Notes: generated from the sequence alone by a model not told the origin. A stretch of DNA of 64,000 nucleotides from Clostridia bacterium (GCA_022797145.1 JAAWKA010000007.1:1589-65588), one strand, 5' to 3'; positions 6,122 to 48,795 are shown, counted from the stretch's first letter. Translations and numbers: made by a program.

Positions 6122-7486
6122 CTACTTTAATCCGATTCTCTTCATTGCTTCTATTATATTATTTACGCCTATTATATCTAATTTATATTTTTCTTTCAAT
6201 AGTTTTTTATTACTTTCTGGAATGATGCAACACTTAAACCCTAGTTTTTCTGCTTCTTTTATTCTTTTTTCAATTAGATTAATACTTCTTACTTCTCCTG
6301 TTAAGCCAACTTCGCCTATTGCTATTGTATCCTTTGGAATAGATATGTTTTTAAAACTTGATGCTGCTGCAAGTATAATTCCTAAGTCAATAGCTGGTTC
6401 ATTTAATTTTATTCCTCCAACAATATTAATATATACATCTTGATTTCCTAAAAGCATCCCTGCTTTTTTTTCTAATACGGCAATTAATAATGTAAGTCTA
6501 TTGTAGTCCATACCATTTGCTGTTCTTCTTGGTATTCCAAATACACTTGGACTTGTAAGTGCTTGTATTTCTATTAATAATGGTCTTGTCCCTTCCATTG
6601 TTGCAACAATTATTGAACCAGCTGGATTATCTTCCCTTTCTGAAATTAATATAGAAGATGGATTATCAATCTCTGACATTCCTTTATCTACCATTTCAAA
6701 CATTCCAATTTCATTTGTTGAACCAAATCTATTTTTTACACCTCTTAAAATTCTATAAGAAAAATATCTTTCTCCTTCTAAATATAAAACTGTATCCACC
6801 ATATGTTCTAAAACACGTGGCCCTGCTATATTTCCATCTTTTGTTACATGTCCTATGATGATTGTTGTTATGGAATTTTGTTTACATATTTTCATGATTT
6901 TTGATGTAATATCCCTTACTTGACTTACACTTCCTGGTGATGAAGTAATTTCATCTGAATACATTGTTTGAATTGAATCTATTATTACTAATTTAGGTTT
7001 TTCAGATATAATTGCTGTTTCAATTAATGATATATCTGTCTCACCTAAAAATAAAATATCATTATTACAAATCTTTAATCTATCTGCTCTTAACTTTATT
7101 TGCTCTGCTGATTCTTCTCCTGATACATATAAGACTTTCCCCTCTGCTTTTATTTTATCACATATTTGTAAGATTAGAGTTGATTTTCCTATGCCTGGTT
7201 CTCCTCCTAAGAGAACTAAAGAACCTTTTACAAGTCCTCCTCCAAGTACTCTATCTAATTCAGTAAAGCCTGTAAAAATTCTTGAAATATTACTTCCTTC
7301 TACTTTGTTTAAAGCCATAGGAATTACTTCTTTCTTCTTTTCATATTTATTTCCTGTACTACTAGATTTAACAAGTTTTTCTTCATAGAAACTATTCCAT
7401 TCGCTACATCCTGGACATTTCCCAAGCCATTTAGGTGACTCATATCCACAGCTACTACATACAAATATACTTTTATCCTTTGCCAT
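6122..7486 (-). CDS. radA: DNA repair protein RadA
   Basis: N-terminal zinc finger CSSCGYESPKWLGKCPGC, Walker A GEPGIGKST, Lon-like C-terminus. Confidence 0.95.
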   Translation of the reverse strand: MAKDKSIFVCSSCGYESPKWLGKCPGCSEWNSFYEEKLVKSSSTGNKYEKKKEVIPMALNKVEGSNISRIFTGFTELDRVLGGGLVKGSLVLLGGEPGIGKSTLILQICDKIKAEGKVLYVSGEESAEQIKLRADRLKICNNDILFLGETDISLIETAIISEKPKLVIIDSIQTMYSDEITSSPGSVSQVRDITSKIMKICKQNSITTIIIGHVTKDGNIAGPRVLEHMVDTVLYLEGERYFSYRILRGVKNRFGSTNEIGMFEMVDKGMSEIDNPSSILISEREDNPAGSIIVATMEGTRPLLIEIQALTSPSVFGIPRRTANGMDYNRLTLLIAVLEKKAGMLLGNQDVYINIVGGIKLNEPAIDLGIILAAASSFKNISIPKDTIAIGEVGLTGEVRSINLIEKRIKEAEKLGFKCCIIPESNKKLLKEKYKLDIIGVNNIIEAMKRIGLK

Positions 7487-7647
7487 TTTCTCTCCTTTTT
7501 TAATAAATATTTAATGAAAATATTTCATTAAATATTTATTAATTTACTTCTCTTTTTCATAATTATTATTGTATATTAAAATATATCATAAAAATTATTT
7601 TCATGATATATTTTTCATAAACTTTATTTACTTTGTTAGTTTAAAAG

Positions 7648-9387
7648 CTAATTAAACATTTGATTTAATAAAATAATAAACATTGCATGTGACCATCCTA
7701 ATCCAATTACCCAAGCTGGTTGCATTGTATTGTTATCTATTTGTTCTGCTAAAAAGCCATGTTGGCTTGCAGAGTTTATTACAAAATCTAAACACTCTTT
7801 TGCTTTTTCTTTATTATTTTGCTCCAAATGGTATAATCCCATCCATAATGTTGCAATTGGCCAAGGATTTCCATTCATATAATGGTCTTGTTCGAATCTT
7901 TGATATCCGCCTGTATAAGTCCTTAATGTTAAATCTATTTTCTCTATTGTATTTGTTATTCTTTTTTCTTTTGGCGTAAATATTTCAAATGGAGTTACTG
8001 CACCTAATATACTAATATCTATAGTTTTATCTTCTACTCCTCTTGTATAACTTTTTTTAGTTTCATCATACATATTTTGTATTATATATTCTTTTATCTT
8101 TAGTTGTTGTTTTTGTAATATCTCTTTTTGCTTTTGTATTGCTTGTTGTTTTAATTTTGCACTTGTATCTTGCTCTTGTTCAAAAATTTGATATGTTTTT
8201 ATCATGCATTCATATGCTGAAAATATGCTAGCTAATGAATATAAATGTATTCCTTCATGCATTTCCCATAAGTCATAGCTTTTTTGAATTTCTTCTTTTT
8301 TTTCTATGACTAATGTTATATATTTTTGTAAATACTTTATTGCCTTTTCCATCATTTTTAAGTTTTCTTTTAGAAACTTTATATTTTTTGTAAATTTGTA
8401 GTGTTCATAAATTCCATATATTACACTTGCTGTTTCATCTATTTGATATCCCCAACATGGTGCAAGTCTTGTATCTGTATAAAAACGTTGTTCCCACATT
8501 CCATTTTTACTTTGTGTATTTTGACAAAATTGTTTGTAAAATTTCTCTGTTTGTTCTTGCATTCCTAACATATCTAATGCTTTTGTTATAAATACTGCAT
8601 CTCTTGGCCAGCAGTATGCATATCTACCACATTTTTGTAAATTCTCATCTATCTCTATTGCTGCTCCAATTCCACCTGTTTGTTCATTGGTTAATAATGG
8701 ATATAATAATATTGTTCTTGTATAAATTTTTTTCACTTTTTTATTATATTGTGTTTCTTCTTTCAATTCTATTTTTGTATGTTCTTTTACATATCTTTCC
8801 CAATACTTCTGGGTCTGTTGGAGTTCTTTTTTTATATCTATTTGTGATATATTATTTAGTTGTTCTTCTATTTCATCTAATTTGTGTTTTGTATTGTTTT
8901 GATTTATATGAATCATTATTTCAATTGTTTTTGTTTCATTTGGTTTTAACTTACCTATTTCATAATTAATACTTGAATCATGTGACATTCCTATATAGTC
9001 TTTATCATTTATCTCTCCTGTATATATATTGTGCTTCGTATTGTTTATTTGATGTGTTGTTATTTTATGACTTTTTGACAATATTGTAAATGTATAATCA
9101 TGTGAATATTGCATTATTCCATTTTGTATTACCTTAGCTCCTATAAAATTATTGTCATTTGATAATAATTTTGAGTGTAATAAAAAATTTATGTCCAAAT
9201 CTATCTGGTTTTCATTTGTAAAAGTATATGTTTTTACTAAAACATTTTTATCTATTGGAACAAAGTCAGTTTGTAAAATTTTTAGATTAAAATATGTATT
9301 TTTTATTTGTGTATTTAATATATTTGTATTTTCTGTATAATATTGATTATATTGATTATTTATGTCATCATGTAACTTTATTAGCAT
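7648..9387 (-). CDS. Glycoside hydrolase family 15 (glucoamylase-like) protein; the 5' end appears frameshifted (see findings)
   Basis: 579-aa ORF with RYAYCWPRDAVF and LWEM-type motifs typical of GH15. A further N-terminal segment is readable in another frame up to ATG 9544. Confidence 0.7.
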   Translation of the reverse strand: MLIKLHDDINNQYNQYYTENTNILNTQIKNTYFNLKILQTDFVPIDKNVLVKTYTFTNENQIDLDINFLLHSKLLSNDNNFIGAKVIQNGIMQYSHDYTFTILSKSHKITTHQINNTKHNIYTGEINDKDYIGMSHDSSINYEIGKLKPNETKTIEIMIHINQNNTKHKLDEIEEQLNNISQIDIKKELQQTQKYWERYVKEHTKIELKEETQYNKKVKKIYTRTILLYPLLTNEQTGGIGAAIEIDENLQKCGRYAYCWPRDAVFITKALDMLGMQEQTEKFYKQFCQNTQSKNGMWEQRFYTDTRLAPCWGYQIDETASVIYGIYEHYKFTKNIKFLKENLKMMEKAIKYLQKYITLVIEKKEEIQKSYDLWEMHEGIHLYSLASIFSAYECMIKTYQIFEQEQDTSAKLKQQAIQKQKEILQKQQLKIKEYIIQNMYDETKKSYTRGVEDKTIDISILGAVTPFEIFTPKEKRITNTIEKIDLTLRTYTGGYQRFEQDHYMNGNPWPIATLWMGLYHLEQNNKEKAKECLDFVINSASQHGFLAEQIDNNTMQPAWVIGLGWSHAMFIILLNQMFN

Positions 9388-25476: not shown

Positions 25477-25564
25477 GCAGATGTGGCGGAATTGGTAGAC
25501 GCACAGGACTTAAAATCCTGCGGTTGAATAAACCGTACCGGTTCGATTCCGGTCATCTGCACCA
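25477..25564 (+). tRNA. tRNA-Leu (anticodon UAA), encoded CCA
   Basis: 7-bp acceptor stem GCAGATG/CATCTGC, anticodon stem CAGGA/TCCTG with loop CTTAAAA, long variable arm, T-arm ACCGG-TTCGATT-CCGGT. Confidence 0.95.
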
Positions 25565-26245: not shown

Positions 26246-28168
<1,923 letters not shown>

Positions 28169-28317
28169 TTGTTGCAACTATTACTTTATATATTATCTAT
28201 GTTGCAACAACAAATTAACGAGAACAAATTTGTATTTGCGATTAGCAAATATCAATTTTGTAGTGAGTTAATTTGATAAATTTTAGCTTTGCGAGATAAA
28301 ATTTATTGCCTCGCAGA

Positions 28318-28397
28318 GCCCCCATGTTATGATGGCACGTCATAACATATAGGGGGTTAGGACTTCTGTCAAGACGAAGTCCTATGCTACGAAGAAA
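28318..28397 (+). promoter_or_regulatory. Two-hairpin element, copy 1 (candidate oriT/RSA of the downstream relaxase)
   Basis: Hairpin 1 at 28319-28356 (CCCCC ATGTTATGA loop TCATAACAT ata GGGGG). Hairpin 2 at 28359-28383 (AGGACTTC loop GAAGTCCT). Tail ATGCTACGAAGAAA. Ends 18 nt before the mob start codon. Confidence 0.45.
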
Positions 28398-28415
28398 TTT
28401 CAAAGGAGGGATTCT

Positions 28416-29804
28416 ATGGAGCAAGAATTAGCATATTCTTTTCACTTGGGTAGTGATAAAAACAAAAGTAAATTAGCAAAGAAAGTTGCAAAAGAAAATG
28501 TATCTGGTACTACTTCTCTGTCTAATAATGCAATTCAAAATGCAAAAGATTTGTCAGATGTAAATAAGCATAATTTGAGAGATTATGATAATCAAACAGA
28601 ACTAATTAGAACAATATATGGGACAAATGATATTGTAAATGATGTAAAACAAGTATATTTAGATGAGTTTGAACAAGCTAGAATTGAATACAACAATAAG
28701 CAAACTAGAAATGATAGAAAAATAGATAATTACTTTACAAAAGTATGTGAATCTCAAAATGATATTGCTTGTGAAATTATAATAGAACTGGGAGATATGG
28801 ATTTTTGGAATGATAAAGACGAAAGATATAGACTTAAAATGGTTGATGTATATAATGAGCAAGTAAAAGACTTAATTAAAATTGTACCAGATTTTAAAAT
28901 AGCAAATGCAACAATACACTTTGACGAAACATCTCCCCATATGCACATTGTAGGTGTTCCAGTAACCTTAAATTGCACTAGAGGAATGAAAAAACAAGTA
29001 GGAAAAAGTAAATTATTTACAAAAGCAACACTTACTGAAATACAAGATAAAATGAGAAATGATTGTATTAAGTCATATAACAAATTTTATTAAGTTAATA
29101 CTAGGTTAAAGCAAAAGCAAAAAGGCAGAAATCAAGACATCAATGTTAATGAAATGAGCAATTACAGAGAAATCAAGAAACAACTAGCTAAAAAAGAACA
29201 AAAACTTGAAAAAGCTAATACTCAAACTAAAATACTTGATAATTCTAGTAATGATATAAACAAAATTTTAAATAGCCTAAAACCTACTAAACTAAACAAA
29301 AATAATATGGTTATTTCAAACGAGGATGTCCAGAGAATCAAAAGTTATACGGAAGATGTGAAAGATATAACCCAGACAGTTAGAAGTGTAAATGACTTAA
29401 ATATGGCGATTAAAGATTTTGAGCATTCTGCATTTGAAATAGAAAAGGAAAATCGTTCACTTAAATATGAAATAGAACTAAAAGATAATGAAATCGGCAA
29501 TCTTAAAAGTGAAATATCTACTAAAGATAAAATTATTGGCAACTTACAAACTGAAAAGGAAAAGATAAAACAGGAATTACAAAAATTTAAAAACTTCTGG
29601 CATAGCATTATGAGCTATTTTCACAAAAGAATTTGTTATAACAAAGATAATAACTATAAAATTGTTAGTGATGATTTATATAAAAATGGTATTTTTGACA
29701 GCAACGATAATGAAATTGCAAATAATATTGCTAGAAAAGTAACTATACCAGATGAAAACAAGCAAAGCAAAAATAAAAAGAAAGATAATGATACCAGATT
29801 TTAA
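28416..29804 (+). pseudogene. MobV/Pre-family relaxase (TnpZ-like) interrupted by one in-frame TAA at 29091-29093
   Basis: Motifs HNLRDY and HFDETSPHMHIVGVPV. ORFs 28416-29093 and 29154-29804 share a frame, and the 60 nt between them contain no other stop. Confidence 0.8.
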
Positions 29805-29821
29805 AAGGAGGAAAAAAAGTT

Positions 29822-30211
29822 ATGAATAATGAATTACCAAAAACAAAAATTGATGGAAGAACAGGTATTGAATATCATTTAGAGGGAGATTACTATATAC
29901 CAAACCTAGTAATGCCTAAACAAGAACGACTTATTTTAAATAAATATGGAAGAATGAGATTAAAATATTTGAAAGAACACAAAAACGCTGATTATACTAT
30001 AATGCTTATGAATGGAACATTAAATGCACATTTGAAAGAAATACAAGAAACGGCAGATAATAGAGTGCATCAGATTATTAGTGAGTTAAAATCTAAAAGT
30101 GATTTGACTGAAGATATGAAAAATACAAATATACTTTATTGGGTAGGTACTATGAACTCTATTAAGGCACAAGCTGAAGAAATTGTTTTTAGTGAATTGA
30201 TTTATGTGTAA
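29822..30211 (+). CDS. tnpV: TnpV-like transposon protein
   Basis: GDYYIPNL, YGRMRLKYLKEH and C-terminal AEEIVFSELIYV match my recollection of Tn4451 TnpV; a paralog lies at 48269-48631. Confidence 0.8.
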   Translation: MNNELPKTKIDGRTGIEYHLEGDYYIPNLVMPKQERLILNKYGRMRLKYLKEHKNADYTIMLMNGTLNAHLKEIQETADNRVHQIISELKSKSDLTEDMKNTNILYWVGTMNSIKAQAEEIVFSELIYV

Positions 30212-30236
30212 TAAAATATAATCACTCGATTTTAAT

Positions 30237-30288
30237 ATTGGGTGATTTTATTATGTGTGAAAATTGGGTGATTTTATTATGTGTGAAA
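30237..30288. repeat. Perfect 26-bp tandem direct repeat x2 (ATTGGGTGATTTTATTATGTGTGAAA)
   Basis: Units 30237-30262 and 30263-30288. Ends 3 nt upstream of the -35 (TTGTAA 30292-30297; TATAAT 30315-30320) of the endonuclease gene. Confidence 0.9.
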
Positions 30289-30350
30289 ATGTTGTAAATT
30301 GTTATATTGTTTGATATAATGCGAATAATGTTAATACAAGGAGAGATTTT

Positions 30351-32345
30351 ATGTTAGATGATATTAAATTTCAAAGTTATTGTTGGAGCTTAGGAACTAC
30401 TAGCTTTAGAGTAAAAGACTTAAACTTTAAAATAGAAAAGCAACTACAAATATTAGATGAATTATGGAACGAAAGTCCTAATGAACAATGGACTGGAAAT
30501 AATAAAATTCAAGAAGAATATTATAATAAAATGTTGTCTAAAGAGTTTATTACAGGAGAAGCAAATAATAAACCTAAAGATGCTAGACAAAAAACTTCTG
30601 GATTAGTTCAAATGGGTGTAATAGATGATAATAGGCACATAACAGAAATAGGAAACAAAATAATTGCTATAGTTGAAAGTGAAAATTTTAAAGATGATAA
30701 TATTTTTAATATAAATAAAGATAGTTATCTATATTTAAAACAATTATTAAAACTTCAAATAACTGATAATGGGATTAATGTAAAGCCATTTGCTGTATTA
30801 CTATATTTTTTAGCAGAATTACAATATTTATCAAAAGATGAATTTACTTATGTTCTTCCTTTAGCTACTAGCGGTGAATATATAGATTTAATGTTAGAAA
30901 ATATAAAAATGCTTAGAAATAGTCAAAAAACAATAGAGGATATTATTCAAAACAAGATGGAAAATATGTCTAATTATAAGGCTGCTATCCAATTTATAAA
31001 AGAAAACGGAATAAACAATATTGAAGAGTTTGCTATTATAGATATGGGAAGAAAAGGAACTAAATATGTAAAACCAATGTATGACTTCTTTGAAAAATTA
31101 TATGCAACATCACAAAGAACTTTTGATGAAGAAGCTTTAAATATAATAGTGGCATTTATAAAAGAACAAACAAAGAAAAATTCTAAAGTTGCAAAATATT
31201 GGAAAGAGTACTTTAAATATTCTACAAGAATATTAACAGAAGAATACCTAGAAGAGATAAAAAAAATACCTTTATTTAATTTTAAAGATAAAACAGAATA
31301 TGCTGTAGAATTTTTTAAGATAATGCATACTGCTAAATGGAAAGCTACATTAGAAGATTATGCAGATTTAAACAAAAGGTATATTTCATTATCTGATGTT
31401 GTCATTTTTGAAGATGATAGAATAGAATTAGATTTGTTTCCTAAGTATTTCTTTTTAAACATTTCTAAAGAAATAGTAAATACGGAAATTTTAAATAAAG
31501 ATAAATATGAAGAATTTATATCAAAGGATATTGAATTTAATAAAATATATAATTGCCTTGATATAAATGTTGATGATGTAATAATTCAAATTCAGACTGA
31601 TTATCCAAATAAATTAGTAAACAGAAATAGTATTAAAACATTTATCGAAGATGAAAAATTAAGAAGATTTAATGAATTGATTGATAATAAATTTAGTGAG
31701 AAGCAACTTATTGAATTATTTAAAAATATTGAAAATAATGATAGAAATGCAATTAATGACTATATTGATTGGAACTCTGATATACCAACAATATTTGAAT
31801 ATATTTTAGGTATTACATGGTATAGATTTAGTAGTAAAAGTGGTAATATATTAGAATATATGAAATTAAGTTTAGATGCCAATTTATTACCAAAAACTCA
31901 TGCGGCAGGAGGAACTGCTGATATAGTATATGAATATAATAAGACTGATACTTATCCAGAACATAAAGTCCTATTAGAAGCTACTTTGACAGAATCAACA
32001 TCACAAAGAAAAAATGAAATGGAACCTGTATCAAGGCATTTAATGAGAGAAATTCAAGAAAATGATAATGATAATACATACGCTGTTTTTGTGGCTAACA
32101 TATTACAAGAAGAAGTGTTGAGTGACTTTAGATCGAGAAAGAGTTATCAATTTAGAGGCAATAATTCTGTGAAAACTGGTTTGAAAATTATTTCTCTTTC
32201 CATTCAAGATATAATAAAGTTAATTAATTTAAAAGTACAATATTCAATGCTATTTGAGATATTTGAAAATGCTTATGAAGATACGGAAATCAACGATTTA
32301 GAGTGGTATGAAAAACTCATAAAAAATAAAGTTAATAATTTGTAA
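30351..32345 (+). CDS. Putative type IIS restriction (or nicking) endonuclease, AlwI/BstNBI/PleI/MlyI-like
   Basis: 664 aa adjacent to a tandem methyltransferase. N-terminal KDARQKTSGLVQMGVIDDNRHITEIG and C-terminal GGTADIVYEY...LLEATLT...EPVSRH resemble the RE_AlwI family as I remember it. Intrinsic terminator at 32345-32370. Confidence 0.6.
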   Translation: MLDDIKFQSYCWSLGTTSFRVKDLNFKIEKQLQILDELWNESPNEQWTGNNKIQEEYYNKMLSKEFITGEANNKPKDARQKTSGLVQMGVIDDNRHITEIGNKIIAIVESENFKDDNIFNINKDSYLYLKQLLKLQITDNGINVKPFAVLLYFLAELQYLSKDEFTYVLPLATSGEYIDLMLENIKMLRNSQKTIEDIIQNKMENMSNYKAAIQFIKENGINNIEEFAIIDMGRKGTKYVKPMYDFFEKLYATSQRTFDEEALNIIVAFIKEQTKKNSKVAKYWKEYFKYSTRILTEEYLEEIKKIPLFNFKDKTEYAVEFFKIMHTAKWKATLEDYADLNKRYISLSDVVIFEDDRIELDLFPKYFFLNISKEIVNTEILNKDKYEEFISKDIEFNKIYNCLDINVDDVIIQIQTDYPNKLVNRNSIKTFIEDEKLRRFNELIDNKFSEKQLIELFKNIENNDRNAINDYIDWNSDIPTIFEYILGITWYRFSSKSGNILEYMKLSLDANLLPKTHAAGGTADIVYEYNKTDTYPEHKVLLEATLTESTSQRKNEMEPVSRHLMREIQENDNDNTYAVFVANILQEEVLSDFRSRKSYQFRGNNSVKTGLKIISLSIQDIIKLINLKVQYSMLFEIFENAYEDTEINDLEWYEKLIKNKVNNL

Positions 32346-32419
32346 AAAAGAGTTGAAAAACTCTTTTTTTATTGTTATAATTTCAGTGTGCATAAGATGC
32401 CTTGAAAGGAAATGAAAAT

Positions 32420-34384
32420 ATGATAAAAAAACTAGAGATAAACAATAGAAGATTTTTAGGTAGTAAATATAAGTTACTAAATTTTATTGAAGATACTGTG
32501 AATGAGCATTGCGAAGATGTTAAATCTGTGATAGATGTATTTGCTGGAACAGGTGTAGTAGGCAGTTTGTTTTTAAAAAACGGAAAAGAAGTATATTTTA
32601 ATGATTATTTAAAATCAAATTGTTATAGTTATAAAGCATTTTATGAGCCTACGAAGGTTGATATAAAAAAGCTTGAAAAAATAATTAATAATTATAATGA
32701 TATGGAAATAGATGAAGAAAACTATTTTTCAGAAAATTTTAGTGATACATATTTTAGCCATAAGGATTGCAAAAAGATTGGTTTTATTAGAGATGATATT
32801 GAAAGTAAATTTAGCTATCAAAAAATTAATGAGCGAGAAAAAAGTATATTGATAGCAAGTCTTATATATTCAATGGACAAAGTGGCGAATACTGTTGGGC
32901 ATTATGATGCTTATAGGAAAATAAGTAATATAGAAGATAAGTTCTTTATGTATATGCTTGATGTTGCTGAAAAAGGCGAAAAAAGATCACATATTAGCAA
33001 CTTAGATGCAAATGAATTTATTAAAAGTGTAAAGGCTGATTTAGTATATATTGATCCACCCTATAACTCAAGACAATATTGTGATGCTTATCACTTACTA
33101 GAAAATATTGCTAGTTGGGACAAGCCAAAGGTATATGGGGTTGCAAAGAAAATGGATAGAACAAATTTGAAAAGTAAATATTGCACAAATAAAGCAATAG
33201 AAGCTTTTGAAGACTTAATAAAAAATTGTAACTGTAAATATATTTTGGTTTCTTATAATAATACAGGAGATAAGTCAAACAGTAGAAGTAATGCTAAAAT
33301 ATCTGATTTACAAATTAAGCAGATACTAGAAAAGAGAGGAAAAGTTCAAGTATTTGAAAAATCTTTTAATAATTTTACAACAGGAAGGAGTGTATCAATT
33401 AATCACAAGGAGAGATTATTTTTATGCGAAACAACAAAGGTTTGTGAAGACAGTCAAGTAAAATTAAAAGATAGCCATTATTTTGCAAAATCTCCTTTAA
33501 ATTATACAGGAGGAAAATACAAACTATTATCTCAATTTGCAAATTTATTTCCTAAAAAGATAGATACATTTGTTGATTTTTTTTGTGGTGGTGGCAATGT
33601 TGCAGTTAATAGTAACGCAAAAAAAATAATTGCAATAGATAAAGAAACTAATTTAATTAAAATATTAGAACTCTTTAAAAATTACGATTATATGGACATT
33701 GTTAATAAGATTGAGGCAATTATTGAAAAATATAATTTAAGTAATACCTACAAGAATGGATATGCATTTTATGGAGAAGATAGTTCATCAGGGCTTGGAA
33801 AATATAATAAACAATACTATTTAAATTTAAGAAATGATTATAACCATATGAAAGATTCAACTGAAAGAGATTTTATGTTTTTGACATTGGTAATTTATGC
33901 GTTTAATCATCAAATTAGATTTAATAGTAATGGTGAATATAATATGCCAGTTGGAAAGAGAGATTTTAACAGTTCAATCAGGAAAAATTTATTGGAATTT
34001 TGTAGAAAATTAGTTGTTAAAAATATTTCTTTTGTTAATACAGATTATAAAAAGTTTGAACTAAAATCTTTAAATAACAATGATTTTTGCTATTTTGACC
34101 CACCATATTATTTAGGGGATGCAAGTTATAATGAAAATGATGGTTGGAATGAGAATAAGGAGAAAGAATTATTAGAATATTTGAATGAAGTAAATAAAAA
34201 TGGTATAAAATTTGCACTTTCAAATGTTACAGAGCATAAGGGATTAAAAAATGAAATATTGATTAATTGGGCGATAGAAAATCAATATAACATACATAAT
34301 CTAAACTATAATTACAGCAATTCAAACTACCATTTGAAAGACAAAAGTCAAGTTACAAAAGAAGTATTGATAACGAATTATTAG
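32420..34384 (+). CDS. Two-domain (tandem) N6-adenine DNA methyltransferase
   Basis: Two complete D12/Dam-class modules. Module 1: FLGSKYKLL, DVFAGTGVVG, VYIDPPYNSRQY (M.FokI-half-like). Module 2: NYTGGKYKLL, DFFCGGGNVA, CYFDPPYYLGD (Dam-like). Confidence 0.9.
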   Translation: MIKKLEINNRRFLGSKYKLLNFIEDTVNEHCEDVKSVIDVFAGTGVVGSLFLKNGKEVYFNDYLKSNCYSYKAFYEPTKVDIKKLEKIINNYNDMEIDEENYFSENFSDTYFSHKDCKKIGFIRDDIESKFSYQKINEREKSILIASLIYSMDKVANTVGHYDAYRKISNIEDKFFMYMLDVAEKGEKRSHISNLDANEFIKSVKADLVYIDPPYNSRQYCDAYHLLENIASWDKPKVYGVAKKMDRTNLKSKYCTNKAIEAFEDLIKNCNCKYILVSYNNTGDKSNSRSNAKISDLQIKQILEKRGKVQVFEKSFNNFTTGRSVSINHKERLFLCETTKVCEDSQVKLKDSHYFAKSPLNYTGGKYKLLSQFANLFPKKIDTFVDFFCGGGNVAVNSNAKKIIAIDKETNLIKILELFKNYDYMDIVNKIEAIIEKYNLSNTYKNGYAFYGEDSSSGLGKYNKQYYLNLRNDYNHMKDSTERDFMFLTLVIYAFNHQIRFNSNGEYNMPVGKRDFNSSIRKNLLEFCRKLVVKNISFVNTDYKKFELKSLNNNDFCYFDPPYYLGDASYNENDGWNENKEKELLEYLNEVNKNGIKFALSNVTEHKGLKNEILINWAIENQYNIHNLNYNYSNSNYHLKDKSQVTKEVLITNY

Positions 34385-34394
34385 AGGTGAAAAC

Positions 34395-35048
34395 ATGGAA
34401 AAAATAATAGATTTAGATGATATAGAAACATATCCTAAACAAGTGTTAGAATATTTAAAAGATAATAAATTAACGGAATTTCCAAAACTTTCTACTTATT
34501 TCTTGGAATATATTAATACGTTGTATTGTAATTTTTATCATTATACTAGAATACCAGATAAACAATTTGTATTAAAAAATGGATTATTGCGACCAGCTAC
34601 AAGTGATTTATTAAAAGATTATTATATAAATATATTAGAAAACTTATATTATAAAGAGGAAAATATTAATTTTAGAAATCTTATATATAACTATAAATAT
34701 GAAACTAGCGGAAATTCAGTTCATGTTACTGCTCCTTTAATAAAAAGTAGAGAATTTAAATCAAAAGGTGTTTTTGATTTTATAAATTATTGGGGTGGTG
34801 AATTAATAAAAGATATAATAGAACCTATTATAGGGATTGAAAAATGGAAAAAAACTCACATTATAGGAGTGCCTTGTATAGTTAATATCAAAGTTAGTTT
34901 ACAAGAAATGTCAGAAACAGAGTTACAAAGAATAATATATATAATGCAGTGTAGATATAAAGAAAAGAGAAAAATTGGAATGGATTATACTTTTTATAGA
35001 GATATTGCACCAAATGAAATTATTGAAATATTTGATATAAAATACTAA
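34395..35048 (+). CDS. Hypothetical protein (217 aa), third gene of the R-M cargo operon
   Basis: ATG 10 nt after the methyltransferase stop; SD AGAGGTGA overlaps that stop. No family recognised. Motif FYHYTRIPDKQFVLKNGLL noted. Confidence 0.6.
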   Translation: MEKIIDLDDIETYPKQVLEYLKDNKLTEFPKLSTYFLEYINTLYCNFYHYTRIPDKQFVLKNGLLRPATSDLLKDYYINILENLYYKEENINFRNLIYNYKYETSGNSVHVTAPLIKSREFKSKGVFDFINYWGGELIKDIIEPIIGIEKWKKTHIIGVPCIVNIKVSLQEMSETELQRIIYIMQCRYKEKRKIGMDYTFYRDIAPNEIIEIFDIKY

Positions 35049-35168
35049 AAATTACTTGAAAGTTTATAAATTTTATGTTAAAGTAAAGACAATAAATTGA
35101 TTGATATTTGTAGCAATCGTTAAGGGTGTGAAAAAAGTTGTAGATATCTACGTTGTTCGCACCATTAG

Positions 35169-35205
35169 AACCTCAAGTGTTTCGGAAGATTGTACTTGAG
35201 GTTTT
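35169..35205 (+). terminator. Intrinsic terminator after the cargo operon
   Basis: CCTCAAGT...ACTTGAGG stem followed by TTTT. Confidence 0.5.
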
Positions 35206-35320
35206 AATTATAAAAAATTTTGTAGTTCTACAAAATTCACAATATTTTATTTTTATAAAATCTTTATTTAGTGGCTTAAATAAGGATTTTTTATTTTCTA
35301 ACATTTCTAACAATTTTTAT

Positions 35321-36553
35321 TTATAACTCCATTTCTTCATCTTCTTCGTCATCATCTTGACTAGGGTCAGTAAAGTTTAAACTATTACCAATTACTAAAG
35401 CAGAATTTTGTTTTGATTCTGTATCTACATGAGTATATATATTTGCTGTAGTATTATAACTAGAATGACCTAACCATATTTGAATATCTTTCATACTTAC
35501 TTTATTAGATAGTAATAAACTAGCACACGAGTGTCTTAAATCATGAAATCTAATGGACTTTAGGTTATTATTTTTTAGTATTTGATTAAACTTATGTGAA
35601 ACATAGTCAGGTTTTAGTATAGAGCCATCTGTATTTACACAAACATAACCATTTTCGTTTAAGTATGATTTTTTAAATACTTTCTTATTGTATTCTTGAT
35701 TTGCTTTTTCTTCTAAAAGTATTTCCTCAATTTCTGGAATTAAAGGCAATGTCCTATAACTTGATTGATTTTTAGTTTTATCTTCTGCAACAATTTGTAG
35801 CTTACCATCTACTTTTGTTTGTGAAATGGTATGTCTAATTATAACTGTTTTATTATCAAAATCAACTGCGTCCCATTTAATACCTAATGCTTCACTTCGC
35901 CTAAGTCCATAATATAAGGCTAAAAGAACAGGTAACTTAATAGGTGTGTCTTTTATTGCAACTAATAATTCATTCAATTGTGCTTTATTATAATAGGTTG
36001 CTATATATTGTTCCTTTTTAGGCTTGTCTATCTTGTCTGCTAGATTGGTTAGTATCAATTCACATTTTACTGCATATTGCAGGGCTTTTCTAATATTTGC
36101 ATGATAGCGAAGAATCGTATTGCCTTTTAAACCTAAATTATATAATTCTGTATAAAAATCTTGAATATGATAGGGTTTTAAATCTTTTAATGAAATATCT
36201 AATTTCTTAAAATAATTATATACTTTACCTTTTACAATTCTTTCATAACCTGCATAAGTAGTTTTTACAACTCTAGGTTTTATAATATCTAGCCAATTTA
36301 TCATAAAATCACAAAATTTTATATTAGCTTTATTATTTATATCTAACCCAGAAATAGTTGTTTTTTCATTTAGAGCTTTTTCATATTCATGTCTTATTTC
36401 TTCAACTTTTCTTTCTGCAAGTTTCTTATTGTTCTTAACTTTTAATTTAGTGGAAATCCACTTTCGCTGTATATTATTAAATTCATCTTTATAATATAAA
36501 ACAGCATAATAAATATTTTTCTTTTGCTGTAATGTAGCTGTTACTGTTATCAT
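35321..36553 (-). CDS. int: Tyrosine site-specific integrase (Tn916-Int-like architecture)
   Basis: RFHDLRHSCASLLL and LGHSSYNTTANIYTHV catalytic box motifs; N-terminal arm-binding-like region; acidic tail. Confidence 0.9.
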   Translation of the reverse strand: MITVTATLQQKKNIYYAVLYYKDEFNNIQRKWISTKLKVKNNKKLAERKVEEIRHEYEKALNEKTTISGLDINNKANIKFCDFMINWLDIIKPRVVKTTYAGYERIVKGKVYNYFKKLDISLKDLKPYHIQDFYTELYNLGLKGNTILRYHANIRKALQYAVKCELILTNLADKIDKPKKEQYIATYYNKAQLNELLVAIKDTPIKLPVLLALYYGLRRSEALGIKWDAVDFDNKTVIIRHTISQTKVDGKLQIVAEDKTKNQSSYRTLPLIPEIEEILLEEKANQEYNKKVFKKSYLNENGYVCVNTDGSILKPDYVSHKFNQILKNNNLKSIRFHDLRHSCASLLLSNKVSMKDIQIWLGHSSYNTTANIYTHVDTESKQNSALVIGNSLNFTDPSQDDDEEDEEMEL

Positions 36554-36591
36554 AAAATAACCTCCTTATTTTTGTGTGAATGTATTTATTT

Positions 36592-36798
36592 TCAATTTTG
36601 ACTTATTATGTATGAAATTATATTAGCTTTTGGAATTTTATATTGTCTGCCTATTTTCATAGCTTTTATTTTATTTTCCTTAATAAGCCTATAGGCTAGG
36701 GTTAAACTAATTCCACCTAACATATTTCGCATTTGTTCAATGTTTATAATATCTGGGTAATTTGTAAACATGATAGAATATTGTTCTTTTACATCCAT
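36592..36798 (-). CDS. xis: Excisionase-family DNA-binding protein
   Basis: 68 aa; IEQMRNMLGGISLTLAYRLIKENKIKAMKIGRQYKIPK matches the excisionase/MerR-like HTH_17 pattern; directly upstream of int. Confidence 0.75.
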   Translation of the reverse strand: MDVKEQYSIMFTNYPDIINIEQMRNMLGGISLTLAYRLIKENKIKAMKIGRQYKIPKANIISYIISQN

Positions 36799-36819
36799 TT
36801 TAATTGTACCTCCTTTTTG

Positions 36820-37035
36820 TTAATAAACTACTTTTGGAACATCTATTGAAACCGTTAATTTTCTGTCTATTTCAAATCTTTTCTTTTTAGCATTATACTT
36901 GTAAGCACTAGAATTAAATTTTCTAAAACTACGATCTGAAATGTCAAAATAATAAGATAGTTCTTCAGCATCTTGTTTCAGTTGGGCTTTAAGAGCTTCA
37001 TAACTATCTCTATTAGTTTTTTGTTTTAATTTCAT
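36820..37035 (-). CDS. Hypothetical protein (71 aa)
   Basis: 4-nt overlap with the upstream HTH gene suggests translational coupling; no family recognised. Confidence 0.45.
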   Translation of the reverse strand: MKLKQKTNRDSYEALKAQLKQDAEELSYYFDISDRSFRKFNSSAYKYNAKKKRFEIDRKLTVSIDVPKVVY

Positions 37036-37226
37036 GTATTCAATCTTTGTTCTTTATGCTTTTGTTTGTTTTGTTGTTTCCTTTGATTTTTTTCTTCATG
37101 ATACCTAAAATCTTTTTTTATTACTTTTGATACATAGGCATTGCTGACATTTAGTTCTAAAGCAATATCAACCGGTTTTAAATGTTCATTGTAAAATAAA
37201 TCAATGATTTTTTCTTTATTTGACAC
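37032..37226 (-). CDS. Small HTH DNA-binding protein (64 aa)
   Basis: GTG start. KPVDIALELNVSNAYVSKVIKK is HTH-like. First gene of the regulator-orf71-xis-int string. Confidence 0.55.
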   Translation of the reverse strand: MSNKEKIIDLFYNEHLKPVDIALELNVSNAYVSKVIKKDFRYHEEKNQRKQQNKQKHKEQRLNT

Positions 37227-38844: not shown

Positions 38845-39888
38845 TCAAACCCAACTTATAAATTTTTTAATAGTTTTTTCAAATGTATTTATAATTTTAT
38901 TCAAATAGATATTTTCACTTAATAATTCATTATATTTTTTATCAAAATTTCTTTTTAGTTCAAATTCTTTATTATAAAAATCCTTTTCTAGTTTAATACA
39001 TTTATTTTCAAGATTTACTTTCTCTTGTAAAATTGATTGTCTTTCATTTTCTAATTTTTCAGCTTTATCAATAGCATTTATTTGTTTTTCTAGTTCTTGA
39101 TGTAATTTCTTATTGTCAGAGTATAGCATATCAATAATTTTGTCTTTTGGCTCTATAATTTCTTTTTGTATTCTTTCATCTCTTTTTACAGTAAGCTTTC
39201 CAAAATCTTTAATGCTAGGAACATTAGGTAGTTCTATTTTTATGTCTTTTAGTGTTTGTTTAGATTTTTCATAATTAGTAATTTCTTTATAATCTTTTAC
39301 AGATAGATGTTCTCTTGAGGATGATTTTCCTCTTTCTAAATCAAAACCATTTTCAGTTATATAAGAATAAAAGGCATTTTGTAATTGAATATAACTATCT
39401 TTATCTTTCCAAAATTCACTACAAGCAATTTTATCAATAGCATTTCCCTTTTTATCGGCAGTATGAACAACAGGAATAAAAACTAAATGTAAATGAGGAG
39501 TTTCTTCGTCTAAATGTACTTTAGCAGACAAAATATACTGTTCGCCTAAGTTTTTATATTCACAAACAAATTTGTATGCAGTTTCAAAATACCTTTTTGT
39601 TTCTTTTTCTCCAATAGATTCAAAAAATTCCTTATCAGATGTAATTATATATTCACATACTATATTACTAACAGTTTTGACTTGTCCTTTTAAATTATAT
39701 TTTTCTCTTATCTTATCAAATTCTTTCTCATAACTATATGTAGGTTCTTTAATCGAATAATTAAGATGTGATTTTGATTTATCTATATTTTTATTAGAAT
39801 AATTTTTATTTCTTCTTTCATTATGACAATATATTCCCTTTAAATTTTCTCTTTTATATTTTTCATTTCTTATAATGGCATAACTCAT
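38845..39888 (-). CDS. MobV/Pre-family relaxase (copy 2); probably truncated by a premature TGA
   Basis: HNERRN and VHLDEETPHLHLVFIPV motifs. 40 further sense codons follow the TGA in frame, down to TAG 38722-38724. Confidence 0.85.
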   Translation of the reverse strand: MSYAIIRNEKYKRENLKGIYCHNERRNKNYSNKNIDKSKSHLNYSIKEPTYSYEKEFDKIREKYNLKGQVKTVSNIVCEYIITSDKEFFESIGEKETKRYFETAYKFVCEYKNLGEQYILSAKVHLDEETPHLHLVFIPVVHTADKKGNAIDKIACSEFWKDKDSYIQLQNAFYSYITENGFDLERGKSSSREHLSVKDYKEITNYEKSKQTLKDIKIELPNVPSIKDFGKLTVKRDERIQKEIIEPKDKIIDMLYSDNKKLHQELEKQINAIDKAEKLENERQSILQEKVNLENKCIKLEKDFYNKEFELKRNFDKKYNELLSENIYLNKIINTFEKTIKKFISWV

Positions 39889-43566: not shown

Positions 43567-43663
43567 GATTGTTAGTTAACTGAACCTTAAAAAGATTTAT
43601 CTTTTTCTTCCATTGAAAAATGGAAGTTTTCTTTTATAATATACTTTTTTATAAGCAAAATTA

Positions 43664-43798
43664 GCCCCCATGTTATGATATTATGTCATAACATATAGGG
43701 GGTTAGGACTTATGGCAAATCCAAAGTCCTGTGCTACGAAGAAAATTTTAAGGATGTGTTTTATTAGAGCAAAAATTAGCATATTATTTTCACTTAGT
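43664..43798 (+). repeat. Two-hairpin element, copy 2, with a ~35-nt stub of a mob 5' end (orphan oriT-like site)
   Basis: Hairpin 1 at 43665-43702 and hairpin 2 at 43705-43730 have the same stems as copy 1 but different loops. Segment 43765-43797 matches the first 35 nt of the 28416 mob gene at about 29/35, with the ATG mutated. Confidence 0.6.
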
Positions 43799-43872: not shown

Positions 43873-44400
43873 TTATTTTCCTTTAATTATTTTTTCTAAA
43901 GTATCTTTTAAAATTTCTTCCCTATTTTTTGATGTATCAATGTATGTTATTCCATATTTTGGACATTCCTTTTTTAACATTTCATTAGCATTATACCAAT
44001 CATTTGCATGCTTTGTTAAATATGCTCTTGACAATCCATATGTCCAACTTTCTTCTATATCATACTTTATACATTGGTTTACCATATCTTCCACAGTATA
44101 AATTTCCTAAACCTAAACATACTACATTTGTATTACTAAAATCTACCATTTCATTTACTATTTTTGGATGTAATTGTCCACTCTCTAAAATATAACCATA
44201 TCCGTTTTTATCTTTTTTTGTTAGTGAATTATATAATTCTAATAATGTCCTTTGAAAATATTCTGCACGTTCTTCAACATTTGAAAATATTCTGCACGTT
44301 CTTCAACATTCATTTTAGAGAGTTTATTACAAAATTCAGTCTTTAAATTCTCTAAAAATTCGTATTATTCATTAGTTAGTTCAATTCTATATATTTTTTC
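43873..44400 (-). pseudogene. Degraded gene downstream of relaxase 3 (unknown family)
   Basis: Only the last 73 codons are intact (43873-44094). Upstream reading requires bypassing an in-frame TAA, a 29-bp tandem duplication and one more frameshift. Confidence 0.5.
44252..44309. repeat. Perfect 29-bp tandem duplication (TTGAAAATATTCTGCACGTTCTTCAACAT x2)
   Basis: Units 44252-44280 and 44281-44309 are identical. The length is not a multiple of 3, so it frameshifts the minus-strand reading frame. Confidence 0.95.
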
Positions 44401-44401
44401 A

Positions 44402-45972
<1,571 letters not shown>

Positions 45973-46470: not shown

Positions 46471-47148
46471 GTGATTATAATAAAAAGATTAAATATATTT
46501 ATAGATGAAAGTGGAGACTTTGGCTTTGTAAAAGGAAGTTCAGACTTATATGCTGTTTCATTTACATTACACGAAAGTTCTAATTCAATAGAAAATGAAC
46601 TAAAATATTTAAACAGAAAATTAGATGAACTTAATTATGATGGAATGATACATTTAGCATATTTAGTTGCTAAAAGAGGAGATTATTCACACTTTGATTT
46701 AGAAAGAAGAAAAAGTATATTTTGGGCTATATTCTATTTTTCAAATAGAGTTAAAGTTAAGATAAGAACTGTAATCATAGATAAAAAATATATCAACAAG
46801 AAAATGCAACTTAATATGGCATTGGCAAGAGAGATAGGACAATTTATAAATAATAATAAAGCATATTTTGATACATTTGATAAAATTGTTATCTATTATG
46901 ACAATGGGCAAGAAACATTAGCAACGATACTAGATACTTTATTTGCTACTAATCCAAAAGTAGAAAGAAGAATAGAATTTGACCATACTAAAAAACGATT
47001 ATTTCAAGTTTCAGATATGTTAACAGTAATCGATAAGCTAGACTACAAAAGAAAAAATAATATTACATTTACAAAAGCTGAAAAGTATTTCTTTAATGGT
47101 AAAGATTTTAGACATATCATAAACTTATTAAAAAATAAAAGAATTTAA
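46471..47148 (+). CDS. DUF3800-family protein
   Basis: N-terminal NIFIDESGDFG and C-terminal LFQVSDML motifs are typical of DUF3800. GTG start with a weak SD. Confidence 0.7.
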   Translation: MIIIKRLNIFIDESGDFGFVKGSSDLYAVSFTLHESSNSIENELKYLNRKLDELNYDGMIHLAYLVAKRGDYSHFDLERRKSIFWAIFYFSNRVKVKIRTVIIDKKYINKKMQLNMALAREIGQFINNNKAYFDTFDKIVIYYDNGQETLATILDTLFATNPKVERRIEFDHTKKRLFQVSDMLTVIDKLDYKRKNNITFTKAEKYFFNGKDFRHIINLLKNKRI

Positions 47149-47179: not shown

Positions 47180-48064
47180 ATGATAGATTTACATTTGCAT
47201 ACAAATCATTCAGATGGAACTGATTCAGTGGAAGAATTATTAGAAAATGCAGAACAACAAAAACTTGAAATGATTTCAATTACTGATCATGATTCTGTAG
47301 GTGCATATTTTGAATTGGAAAAACATCCAGAAGTTAGGAGAAAATTTAGTGGAGAGATTATAATTGGCTAAGAAATAAAGACAATTTTTGATGATGTTAA
47401 TATAGAAATTTTAGCTTATGGCATCGATTATAAAAATATAAACATAAAAAAAGAAGACAAAATGCAAGTTCAAAATGATATTTTAAAGCATTTTATAAAT
47501 GTTGCTAAAAGTCTTGGAATTAAAGTAGATGAGAATATAAAAGTAGATATAGCAGATCCTAATAGAATATATGCATGTTGGGTATTTTGTGATGATATAA
47601 TAAAGTATAAAGAAAATGAACAAATATTAAAAGATTTAGGGCAAGTAAATAGAATTACTTTTTATAGAGAACATGAAGGAAATAAGAATAGTCCTTTTTA
47701 TTACAATACTTCAAAATATTATGATGATTGTCAAACCTTAATAGATAAAATACATAAGGCAGGAGGATTAGCCTTTTTAGCACATGGGTTAATATATTCA
47801 TTTGATAATAACAGACATGCTATAGAAAAAATATTGCAAACAACAAGTATTGATGGGCTAGAGTGTATATATCCATTATTTAATGAGGAAGAAAAAGAAT
47901 TTATGATGAATTTATGTAAAAAATATAATAAATTTATGTCAGGAGGTTCTGATTATCATGCAAAAAATAAACCTACAACTTTTATGGGAACTGGTATAAA
48001 TAATAATATAATTGTAAAAAAAGATTTAGTGAAAAATTGGATAAATACAGTAAGTAAAATTTAG
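47180..48064 (+). pseudogene. PHP-domain phosphoesterase interrupted by one in-frame TAA at 47369-47371
   Basis: IDLHLHTNHSDG, ITDHD and GGSDYH motifs. ORFs 47180-47371 and 47462-48064 share a frame, and the region between them is open. Confidence 0.75.
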
Positions 48065-48739: not shown

Positions 48740-48795
48740 GGGTTAGAAGTTATGACAAGGTCAAAGTCCTATGCTACGAAGAAATTGCTAAAGGA
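48740..48795 (+). repeat. Two-hairpin element, copy 3 (decayed remnant: hairpin 1 missing, hairpin 2 arm mutated)
   Basis: GGGTTAGaAGTTatgacaaggtcAAAGTCCTATGCTACGAAGAAATT aligns with copy 1 from GGGGGTTAGG to the tail. Confidence 0.4.

Follow-up and report, generated by a model that had tools for sequence, protein, structure and literature searches.

ADP-ribosyltransferase (ART)-fold effectors of defence and conflict that are encoded next to restriction-modification (R-M) systems are already a known kind, and DarT is the single-stranded DNA thymidine ADP-ribosyltransferase of the DarTG defence and toxin-antitoxin (TA) system. Signature residues differ within the fold: HX[S/T] with a second His and a hydrophobic residue (H-H-h) marks Tpt1/CC0527, and H-H-D marks the anti-CRISPR ART AcrIF11 (PMC8120803). 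Here we analyze gene X, found in a 64,000-nucleotide (nt) stretch of DNA from a Clostridia bacterium (GCA_022797145.1, JAAWKA010000007.1:1589-65588; hereafter the window, with positions counted from its first letter), where it comes directly after the methyltransferase gene in an AlwI-like Type IIS R-M cassette that is mobile. Comparison with related cassettes reveals a hypervariable slot at this position, and we see about even chances that X is independent accessory cargo of a defence type in that slot, encoding a divergent NAD+-using ART-like enzyme.

Gene X and the slot behind the methyltransferase

The AlwI-family restriction endonuclease gene R (30351-32345) and the methyltransferase gene M (32402-34384) both lie on the plus strand, and M, the operon partner upstream of X, encodes a 660-amino-acid (aa) tandem of two fused D12-class N6-adenine DNA methyltransferase domains, as expected for an AlwI-like Type IIS system. 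X (34395-35048, plus strand) is an intact open reading frame (ORF) of 217 codons that begins with ATG. Ten nt lie between the M stop codon (TAG, 34382-34384) and this ATG, and a direct reading of the sequence places the Shine-Dalgarno (SD) element of X, AGAGGTG with its GAGGTG core (34383-34389, plus strand), 5 nt ahead of the start and overlapping the M stop.

One genome per species was scanned for homologs of M, yielding 21 loci, and the stretch past M was readable in 18 of them. M identity in these sister loci is 60-90%, mostly 80-90%, and R is present at 83-84% identity in 13 of the 21. An intact X occurs in none of the 18 readable cassettes. DNA homology to the window ends at 34381-34393, at the M stop codon, in most sister loci, and extends past the stop only in an X remnant (L034) and in L026 and L027, where it reaches about 34421-34423. 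The typical layout is a different same-strand gene starting 12-40 nt past M, and five loci have no close third gene there. In 12 sister cassettes the slot genes match PADLOC models of eight kinds of known or candidate defence: AAA_13/PDC-S06 (L026, L027, L032, L036 and L037), an OLD-family, GajA-like (Gabija-like) nuclease (L028), a Ser/Thr kinase of the PD-T4-6/Stk2 type (L029), Dodola DolA and DolB (L035), T5orf172/PDC-S57 (L038 and L044), GmrSD/HEC-06 (L039) and DUF4268/PDC-S11 (L043). Because sister M genes precede different defence genes, the position of X is a hypervariable defence slot, and it is the slot, rather than X itself, that accounts for the close spacing to M. At least nine gene contents alternate at this exchange slot right after M of the mobile AlwI-like cassette, and in gut anaerobes that have been little studied, slots of this kind are practical places to look for defence genes not yet known.

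Two lineages carry dead copies of X. The same cassette at 98.4% identity is found in L048, with R (7 nt differences) and M (29 nt differences, 10 amino-acid changes) both intact. Its X has a mutated SD core (GAGGTG to GAGCTG), a nonsense mutation at codon 60 (L60, TTA to TAA) and two 1-nt deletions, and six of its eight substitutions are non-synonymous. In L034, a mouse-gut metagenome-assembled genome, only a remnant of X lies directly past an intact M; it starts with ATA instead of ATG, lacks 34422-34536, keeps 34537-34655 at 83% identity and then gives way to unrelated sequence. The remnants in these two loci imply that the linkage of X to R-M is older than the present strain, and the intact R-M genes beside a dead X imply that X is dispensable and that R-M is unharmed when X is lost. 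Decay of this kind is what one expects from an accessory gene that is costly and under selection that fluctuates.

These comparisons of sequence indicate that X is functionally not part of the R-M system, despite its coupling to M, and they correct a tempting inference, as tight translational coupling is not the same as functional membership of an R-M system. The first-pass annotation, made from the window alone, was right to regard X as accessory cargo. Its further proposal of a third R-M component is contradicted by the 18 sisters without an intact X, the dead copies in two, and a survey of gene neighbourhoods in which no readable X relative stands beside an R-M pair. Nor is a three-gene unit of R, tandem M and a further gene unusual, as it had supposed, a third gene past M being the norm in this cassette family.

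The end of the M-X transcription unit is marked by an intrinsic-terminator-like hairpin on the plus strand (~35164-35208), in which RNA folding of 35040-35240 shows a long hairpin followed by a T/A-rich tail (z = -4.45, none of 200 shuffles as stable). Its loop is long, which is why a simple scan for terminators did not pick it up. The spacer between X and the downstream integrase gene (35125-35237) holds three stable hairpins in a row, with an overall z of -4.45. Between R and M, a consensus match to a sigma-70-type promoter (TTGAAA-17-TGnTATAAT, near consensus with an extended -10; 32353-32381, plus strand) probably drives the M-X transcript. Since it lies just upstream of M, M and X need not depend on the R promoter and could form a unit of their own. 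One metatranscriptome contig (run X26, 34330-34506) crosses the M/X junction and a second (run X25, 34422-34589) lies within X; both assemblies are from mouse-gut metatranscriptomes, whose libraries may contain carried-over DNA. The junction-spanning contig fits co-transcription of M and X, which is probable, and X is tightly linked to M. On these points our results agree with the first-pass annotation, which had described the 10-nt spacing and the SD over the M stop (both re-read here), placed a terminator at 35169-35205 and read X as co-transcribed with M, and perhaps with R. The reality of the gene, its linkage to M, the variability of the slot, and the dispensability and rarity of X are directly supported.

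In the run X26 contig (depth 3.3), the A6 tract at 34398-34403, in codons 2-3 of X, is one A short, and an A tract (A7, ~34860) is also the site of one of the two L048 frameshifts. Such homopolymers may be hot spots that switch X off, or the missing bases may be sequencing errors.

Rarity, conservation and fold of protein X

Protein X founds a very rare family of its own: it falls into no described family, and fewer than 12 relatives are known. Pfam, PADLOC, NCBIfam and PHROGs gave no family match, in keeping with the first-pass annotation, which had recognised none. A word-indexed search of 5.8 billion protein clusters returned X itself and one relative, P0002, the closest known, which is 53% identical end to end with no frameshift. 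The ratio of non-synonymous to synonymous substitution rates between the two is ~0.27, with the synonymous rate near saturation; the X ORF is therefore under purifying selection, and these sequence comparisons identify it as a real gene. An exhaustive phmmer search of 1.84 billion representative proteins found nine proteins in total at E <= 1e-3, and a profile search added one further member, for about 10 relatives overall. GTDB species representatives yielded no relative, PLSDB plasmids and GenBank phages gave no DNA or protein match, and JGI metagenome and IMG/VR viral contigs yielded no relative with the X+P0002 alignment and four distant members as queries. Literature searches brought up nothing specific on a family matching X or on this type of element carrying defence slots. 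The exact X protein is encoded on 13 contigs from mouse-gut samples, all 13 with the window's own context.

Family members are 217-253 aa long. Nearly invariant are H49 (within Y-H-x-[TS]-[RK]), G63 (G-[LI]), G134-G135-E136, G158 (I-G-x-P) and I209. Positions 109-111 (V109-H110-V111 in X) follow the pattern [VI]-[HWY]-[FV] across the family, and conservation extends to I157-G158-x-P160 and D197...D203-I-x-P206-x-x-I209.

The other contexts of X relatives are variable or defence-like, and in four of the seven the X-family gene is the downstream member of a tightly coupled pair. P0002 abuts a 66-aa HTH_26 (Xre-type) gene; P0010 overlaps a preceding 69-aa cold-shock-domain (CSD)-like ORF by 4 nt; P0007 (Balneola sp.) follows a 105-aa membrane ORF in an integrase-bounded island with HigB/HigA-like and other TA genes; P0006 follows a 138-aa ORF, two genes after a DUF3800 gene; P0009 lies past an unknown 358-aa gene and a SUKH immunity gene. 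P0003 stands alone, adjoining a PDC-S02 (DUF1016) gene, and P0008 is alone as well. The upstream partners are mutually unrelated, and none of the readable neighbourhoods includes an R-M pair.

One of these contexts touches the window itself. The DUF3800 gene at 46471-47148 has 95% protein identity to that of locus L022 (6516-8720), where it is followed by the 138-aa ORF and then P0006, a 27%-identical member of the X family; the window instead has an unrelated 200-aa ORF (47462-48064), which was considered as an X paralog and ruled out. Related gut Clostridia therefore have two distant members of the X family circulating in their variable regions.

A single-sequence AlphaFold prediction of X was uninformative (predicted local distance difference test score, pLDDT, 34), and AlphaFold2 (AF2) on an alignment of 11 sequences gave a confident model with pLDDT 87.8 and a predicted template modelling (TM) score of 0.84. 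In a Foldseek search of this model against PDB, 12 of the 13 top matches were ART-fold proteins, none of them significant (E 0.12-4.7, TM 0.25-0.31). Tpt1/KptA from two archaea came first (E 0.12-1, probability 0.4-0.72, TM 0.25-0.31), followed by pertussis toxin S1 and the Rhs toxin TreTu, with CARDS toxin lower. The only significant structural match was in BFVD, to an uncharacterised siphovirus protein (E 2.9e-5, TM 0.6); weaker BFVD matches were phage proteins annotated as PARP catalytic domain, DarT (probability 0.57) and RNA 2'-phosphotransferase.

Searches by sequence point in a similar direction. The family profile against PDB sequences ranked PARP16 first (E 0.19), with Tpt1 at E 1.2, both on the H-x-[ST]...G-L motif, and Pfam PARP weakly matched one X-family member on the same motif. 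With E. coli KptA and a small four-sequence Tpt1 profile assembled from PDB alignments as targets, hhalign gave a weak match that recovered only the H-x-T...G-L motif, aligning X 45-68 with KptA 101-124 (YHYT...NGL against YHGT...QGL; P 0.011-0.044). An alignment by eye, which has no statistical support, sets VHLS, GSPVILTVKAQEM and ...VAVEFLEW of KptA collinear with SVHVTA, GVPCIVNIKVSLQEM and ...IAPNEIIEIF of X. The H-H-h signature can be read in X as H49-Y-T51, with H49 nearly invariant, and V109-H110-V111, with H, W or Y at the middle position. X could also present H49, H110 and D197 as H-H-D, as read from its sequence; D197 lies in the DYTFY segment, which may be compared with E-Y-I-V-Y of PARP1. 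The first-pass annotation had noticed the H-x-T...G-L resemblance to ARTs from the sequence, and this idea gained modest independent support from PARP16, Tpt1, Pfam PARP and Foldseek, in which ART-fold proteins dominated the top PDB matches, but every one of these similarities stayed below threshold. Overall, we consider an ART-like fold rather probable.

Possible role of X and alternative explanations

We propose that X would be independent, defence-type accessory cargo at the 3' end of the mobile AlwI-like Type IIS cassette, expressed by read-through and translational coupling from M. Its fold would resemble the NAD+-binding lobe of Tpt1/KptA and other ARTs, and the active site might consist of H49-x-T51, a second aromatic or His residue (H110) and the invariant G-G-E136, with a possible H-H-D arrangement involving D197. 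In the presence of a phage or other invader, X could ADP-ribosylate a target, either nucleic acid or protein, with NAD+ as substrate, or could consume NAD+, and may thus act as a second, possibly abortive, line of defence behind restriction.

In this proposal the class of fold, the enzyme activity and the role in defence are all inferred, and a number of observations weigh against it. All similarities of X to ARTs are sub-threshold (Foldseek against PDB E >= 0.12 with TM 0.25-0.31; hhalign P 0.011-0.044), no Foldseek match to a protein of known fold reaches E < 0.01, and a profile of the C-terminal half of X retrieved no ART protein from PDB. The invariant E136 of GGE sits at the start of a predicted helix, not in the strand usual for the catalytic Glu of ARTs, and at the canonical acid position, D197 in X, an acidic residue is found in only about 6 of 8 members. 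Neither a macrodomain, ARH, NADAR or other partner able to reverse ADP-ribosylation nor any obvious antitoxin lies near X in the window. As no PADLOC model matches X, the defence role is argued from position only, and a family of about 10 is too small for statistical neighbourhood enrichment.

A bolder version, which we offer tentatively and would sooner doubt than adopt, is that X founds a family of stand-alone ART-like immune effectors with a Tpt1-type NAD lobe and GGE and no dedicated reversing enzyme or antitoxin, which would ADP-ribosylate phage or host nucleic acid or protein and serve as a plug-in third gene behind M of mobile Type IIS cassettes in gut Clostridia. If X is an active ART-like defence enzyme, it would be a new and unusually rare branch of bacterial NAD+/ADP-ribose immunity, and a branch with no macrodomain partner would raise the question of how self-damage is avoided.

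Among the alternatives, X could be the ART-like toxin of a TA or addiction module, comparable with DarT or ParT, that stabilises the mobile element. Xre-type antitoxins pair with ART-fold RES/ParT toxins, and the coupled upstream partners in four of seven contexts (the 66-aa HTH_26, 69-aa CSD-like, 105-aa membrane and 138-aa ORFs) would suit such a module, as would repeated pseudogenisation, which fits a costly gene. However, these partners are unrelated to one another, the upstream gene in the window encodes a 660-aa methyltransferase with no small partner ORF on either side of X, two family members (P0003 and P0008) stand alone, and no known ART antitoxin domain (macrodomain or DUF2384) was seen. 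We consider this explanation unlikely, and it overlaps mechanistically with abortive defence.

Another explanation that we find hard to favour is that X does not have an ART fold at all and is a structural, regulatory or unrelated small protein with a fortuitous resemblance to ART motifs. The sub-threshold similarities, with TM to Tpt1 of only 0.25-0.31, would be expected in that case, together with the lack of ART matches from the C-terminal half and a good model obtained on 11 sequences only, the single-sequence model being uninformative. On the other hand, independent searches converge on ARTs (structural matches to five different ART families in PDB and to four named ART-like phage proteins in BFVD, with PARP16, Tpt1 and Pfam PARP matched by sequence), and the invariant H49, G63, GGE and G158 look more like an active site than a scaffold.

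It is improbable that X serves the mobile element in anti-defence or establishment, as an ART like AcrIF11 might do by modifying an immune protein of the host once transfer has taken place. The possible H49-H110-D197 triad would be as in AcrIF11 (PMC8120803), the sole significant structural match is an uncharacterised phage protein with several weaker phage ART-like ones behind it, and X is carried on a mobilizable transposon; yet the sister slot holds defence and not anti-defence genes, X sits at the distal end of the cargo behind a constitutive-looking M promoter and not in a leading region, and searches of IMG/VR viral contigs and GenBank phages gave no sequence relatives. Very improbable, and largely refuted by the comparative data, is an integral role in R-M as a controller, a specificity or activation factor, or an R/M-dependent partner effector: the 10-nt spacing and SD over the M stop, the RNA contig across the junction and the remnants directly past M in two more lineages, which date the linkage before the present strain, would agree with it, but 18 of 18 readable sisters (M 60-90%) lack an intact X and mostly have a replacement gene, R and M are intact beside the multiply inactivated X of L048, no readable X relative adjoins an R-M pair, and X has no helix-turn-helix or other DNA-binding signature.

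The mobile backbone and comparison with described systems

The cassette is carried by a mobilizable-element backbone (26249-30211, plus strand) made up of a large serine recombinase (26249-28168), a Mob_Pre relaxase region of two ORFs (28416-29093 and 29154-29804) and TnpV (29822-30211), all on the plus strand, and the order MobA-MobB-TnpV-R-M recurs in several sister loci. The relaxase region encodes a 225-aa Mob_Pre protein and a 216-aa coiled-coil protein; because sister locus L040 (665-2062) has a matching layout, at 62% and 41% identity, the two-ORF arrangement looks genuine rather than like a recent frameshift. Three Mob_Pre genes are present in the window (28416-29093, 38845-39888 and 44402-45700). 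A repeat of ~90 nt with an internal palindrome (AGCCCCCATGTTATGA...TCATAACATATAGGGGG) has full copies at 28317-28404, just upstream of the first Mob_Pre gene, and at 43663-43751, and a 28-nt right-hand part of it forms a third, partial copy at 48764-48791; it may be an origin of transfer (oriT) or a recombination site. Between the tnpV terminator and the promoter-like site of R, a 26-nt direct repeat, AATATTGGGTGATTTTATTATGTGTG, stands in two tandem copies (30234-30285) and may be an operator or regulatory site for R. Just downstream of the third Mob_Pre gene, 29 nt (TTTGAAAATATTCTGCACGTTCTTCAACA) are exactly duplicated in tandem, giving two copies (44251-44308). Some sister elements carry ~2.4 kb extra between tnpV and R (L026 480-2929), so there may be another variable position ahead of R and M.

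The segment just past X (35072-35153, plus strand) has a counterpart with 4 mismatches in 82 nt on another contig from the isolate run of this organism, a weak match between contig pieces, and next to the counterpart comes sequence similar to the 3' flank of the window's tRNA-Leu gene. The segment probably belongs to the conserved backbone of the element or to an end region, in which case X would lie at the distal edge of the cargo, and it may be an element end or attachment (att) region. A tRNA-Leu(TAA) gene (25477-25564) lies just left of the serine-recombinase element, and the contig that encodes P0002 (L002) has, at 1116-1143 and ~150 nt past the P0002 stop, a stretch of 28 nt identical to an internal part of this tRNA gene. 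Read from these sequences, P0002, like X, may lie at the far end of an element integrated at tRNA-Leu(TAA). Directly past the slot, a tyrosine integrase gene and an HTH_17 excisionase-like gene occupy the opposite strand (35321-37226), and in L032 a minus-strand integrase gene (7249-8472) comes right after the slot gene, its product only 24% identical to the window integrase. No conserved right-end sequence common to the window and the sister loci was found. A joint of 30210 to 35091 in run X5 had a flank of only 22 nt and was not used as proof of an empty sister element.

Among described enzymes, Tpt1/KptA has a like order of motifs: [FY]-H-x-T with G-L about 10 residues on (KptA YHGT...QGL), V-H-[VL]-[ST] (KptA VHLS), G-x-P-h-I-h-x-h-K...QEM (KptA GSPVILTVKAQEM), and a C-terminal strand pair that ends in h-[AP]-x-x-[FI]-[IL]-E-h. 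However, X has only 44 residues before H-x-T and lacks the N-terminal winged-helix RNA lobe, which carries the R-H dyad, and the hhalign match covers the C lobe only (KptA 91-165), leaving KptA 1-90 unmatched. X also lacks the R-H-R-R catalytic tetrad, which includes the Arg that follows G-L in the NAD lobe: the N-lobe residues are absent, and R66 (GLLRP) is present in X but not conserved in relatives (GIHVPS, GLKVLE, GLITGG and GLLLLD). It has two long helical insertions (~68-105 and ~114-157) as well as the family-specific invariant GGE. Its context is mobile defence cargo, in contrast to RNA repair or NAD metabolism. X as a Tpt1 orthologue was ruled out on the absence of the RNA lobe and the tetrad.

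Like DarT, X is a small, single-domain ART-like protein (about 210-230 aa) in a defence or mobile context, and the H-x-T...G-L motif fits; in contrast, neither X nor its 10 relatives match Pfam DarT even at E <= 10, and no macrodomain (DarG) gene is adjacent in the window or beside any homolog. The identification of X as DarT was ruled out for lack of a DarT profile match and of a DarG-like neighbour. In AcrIF11, a small and divergent ART, His-His-Asp replaces H-Y-E (PMC8120803), and H49-H110-D197 of X could match this triad, but X gave no sequence or structure match to AcrIF11, and the context of X favours defence over counter-defence. The PDC-S families, PD-T4-6, OLD/Gabija-like nucleases and GmrSD are the closest counterparts by position, since X lies in an exactly equivalent slot, on the same strand and with equivalent spacing past a homologous M, and it differs from them in matching none of their models and in being far rarer.
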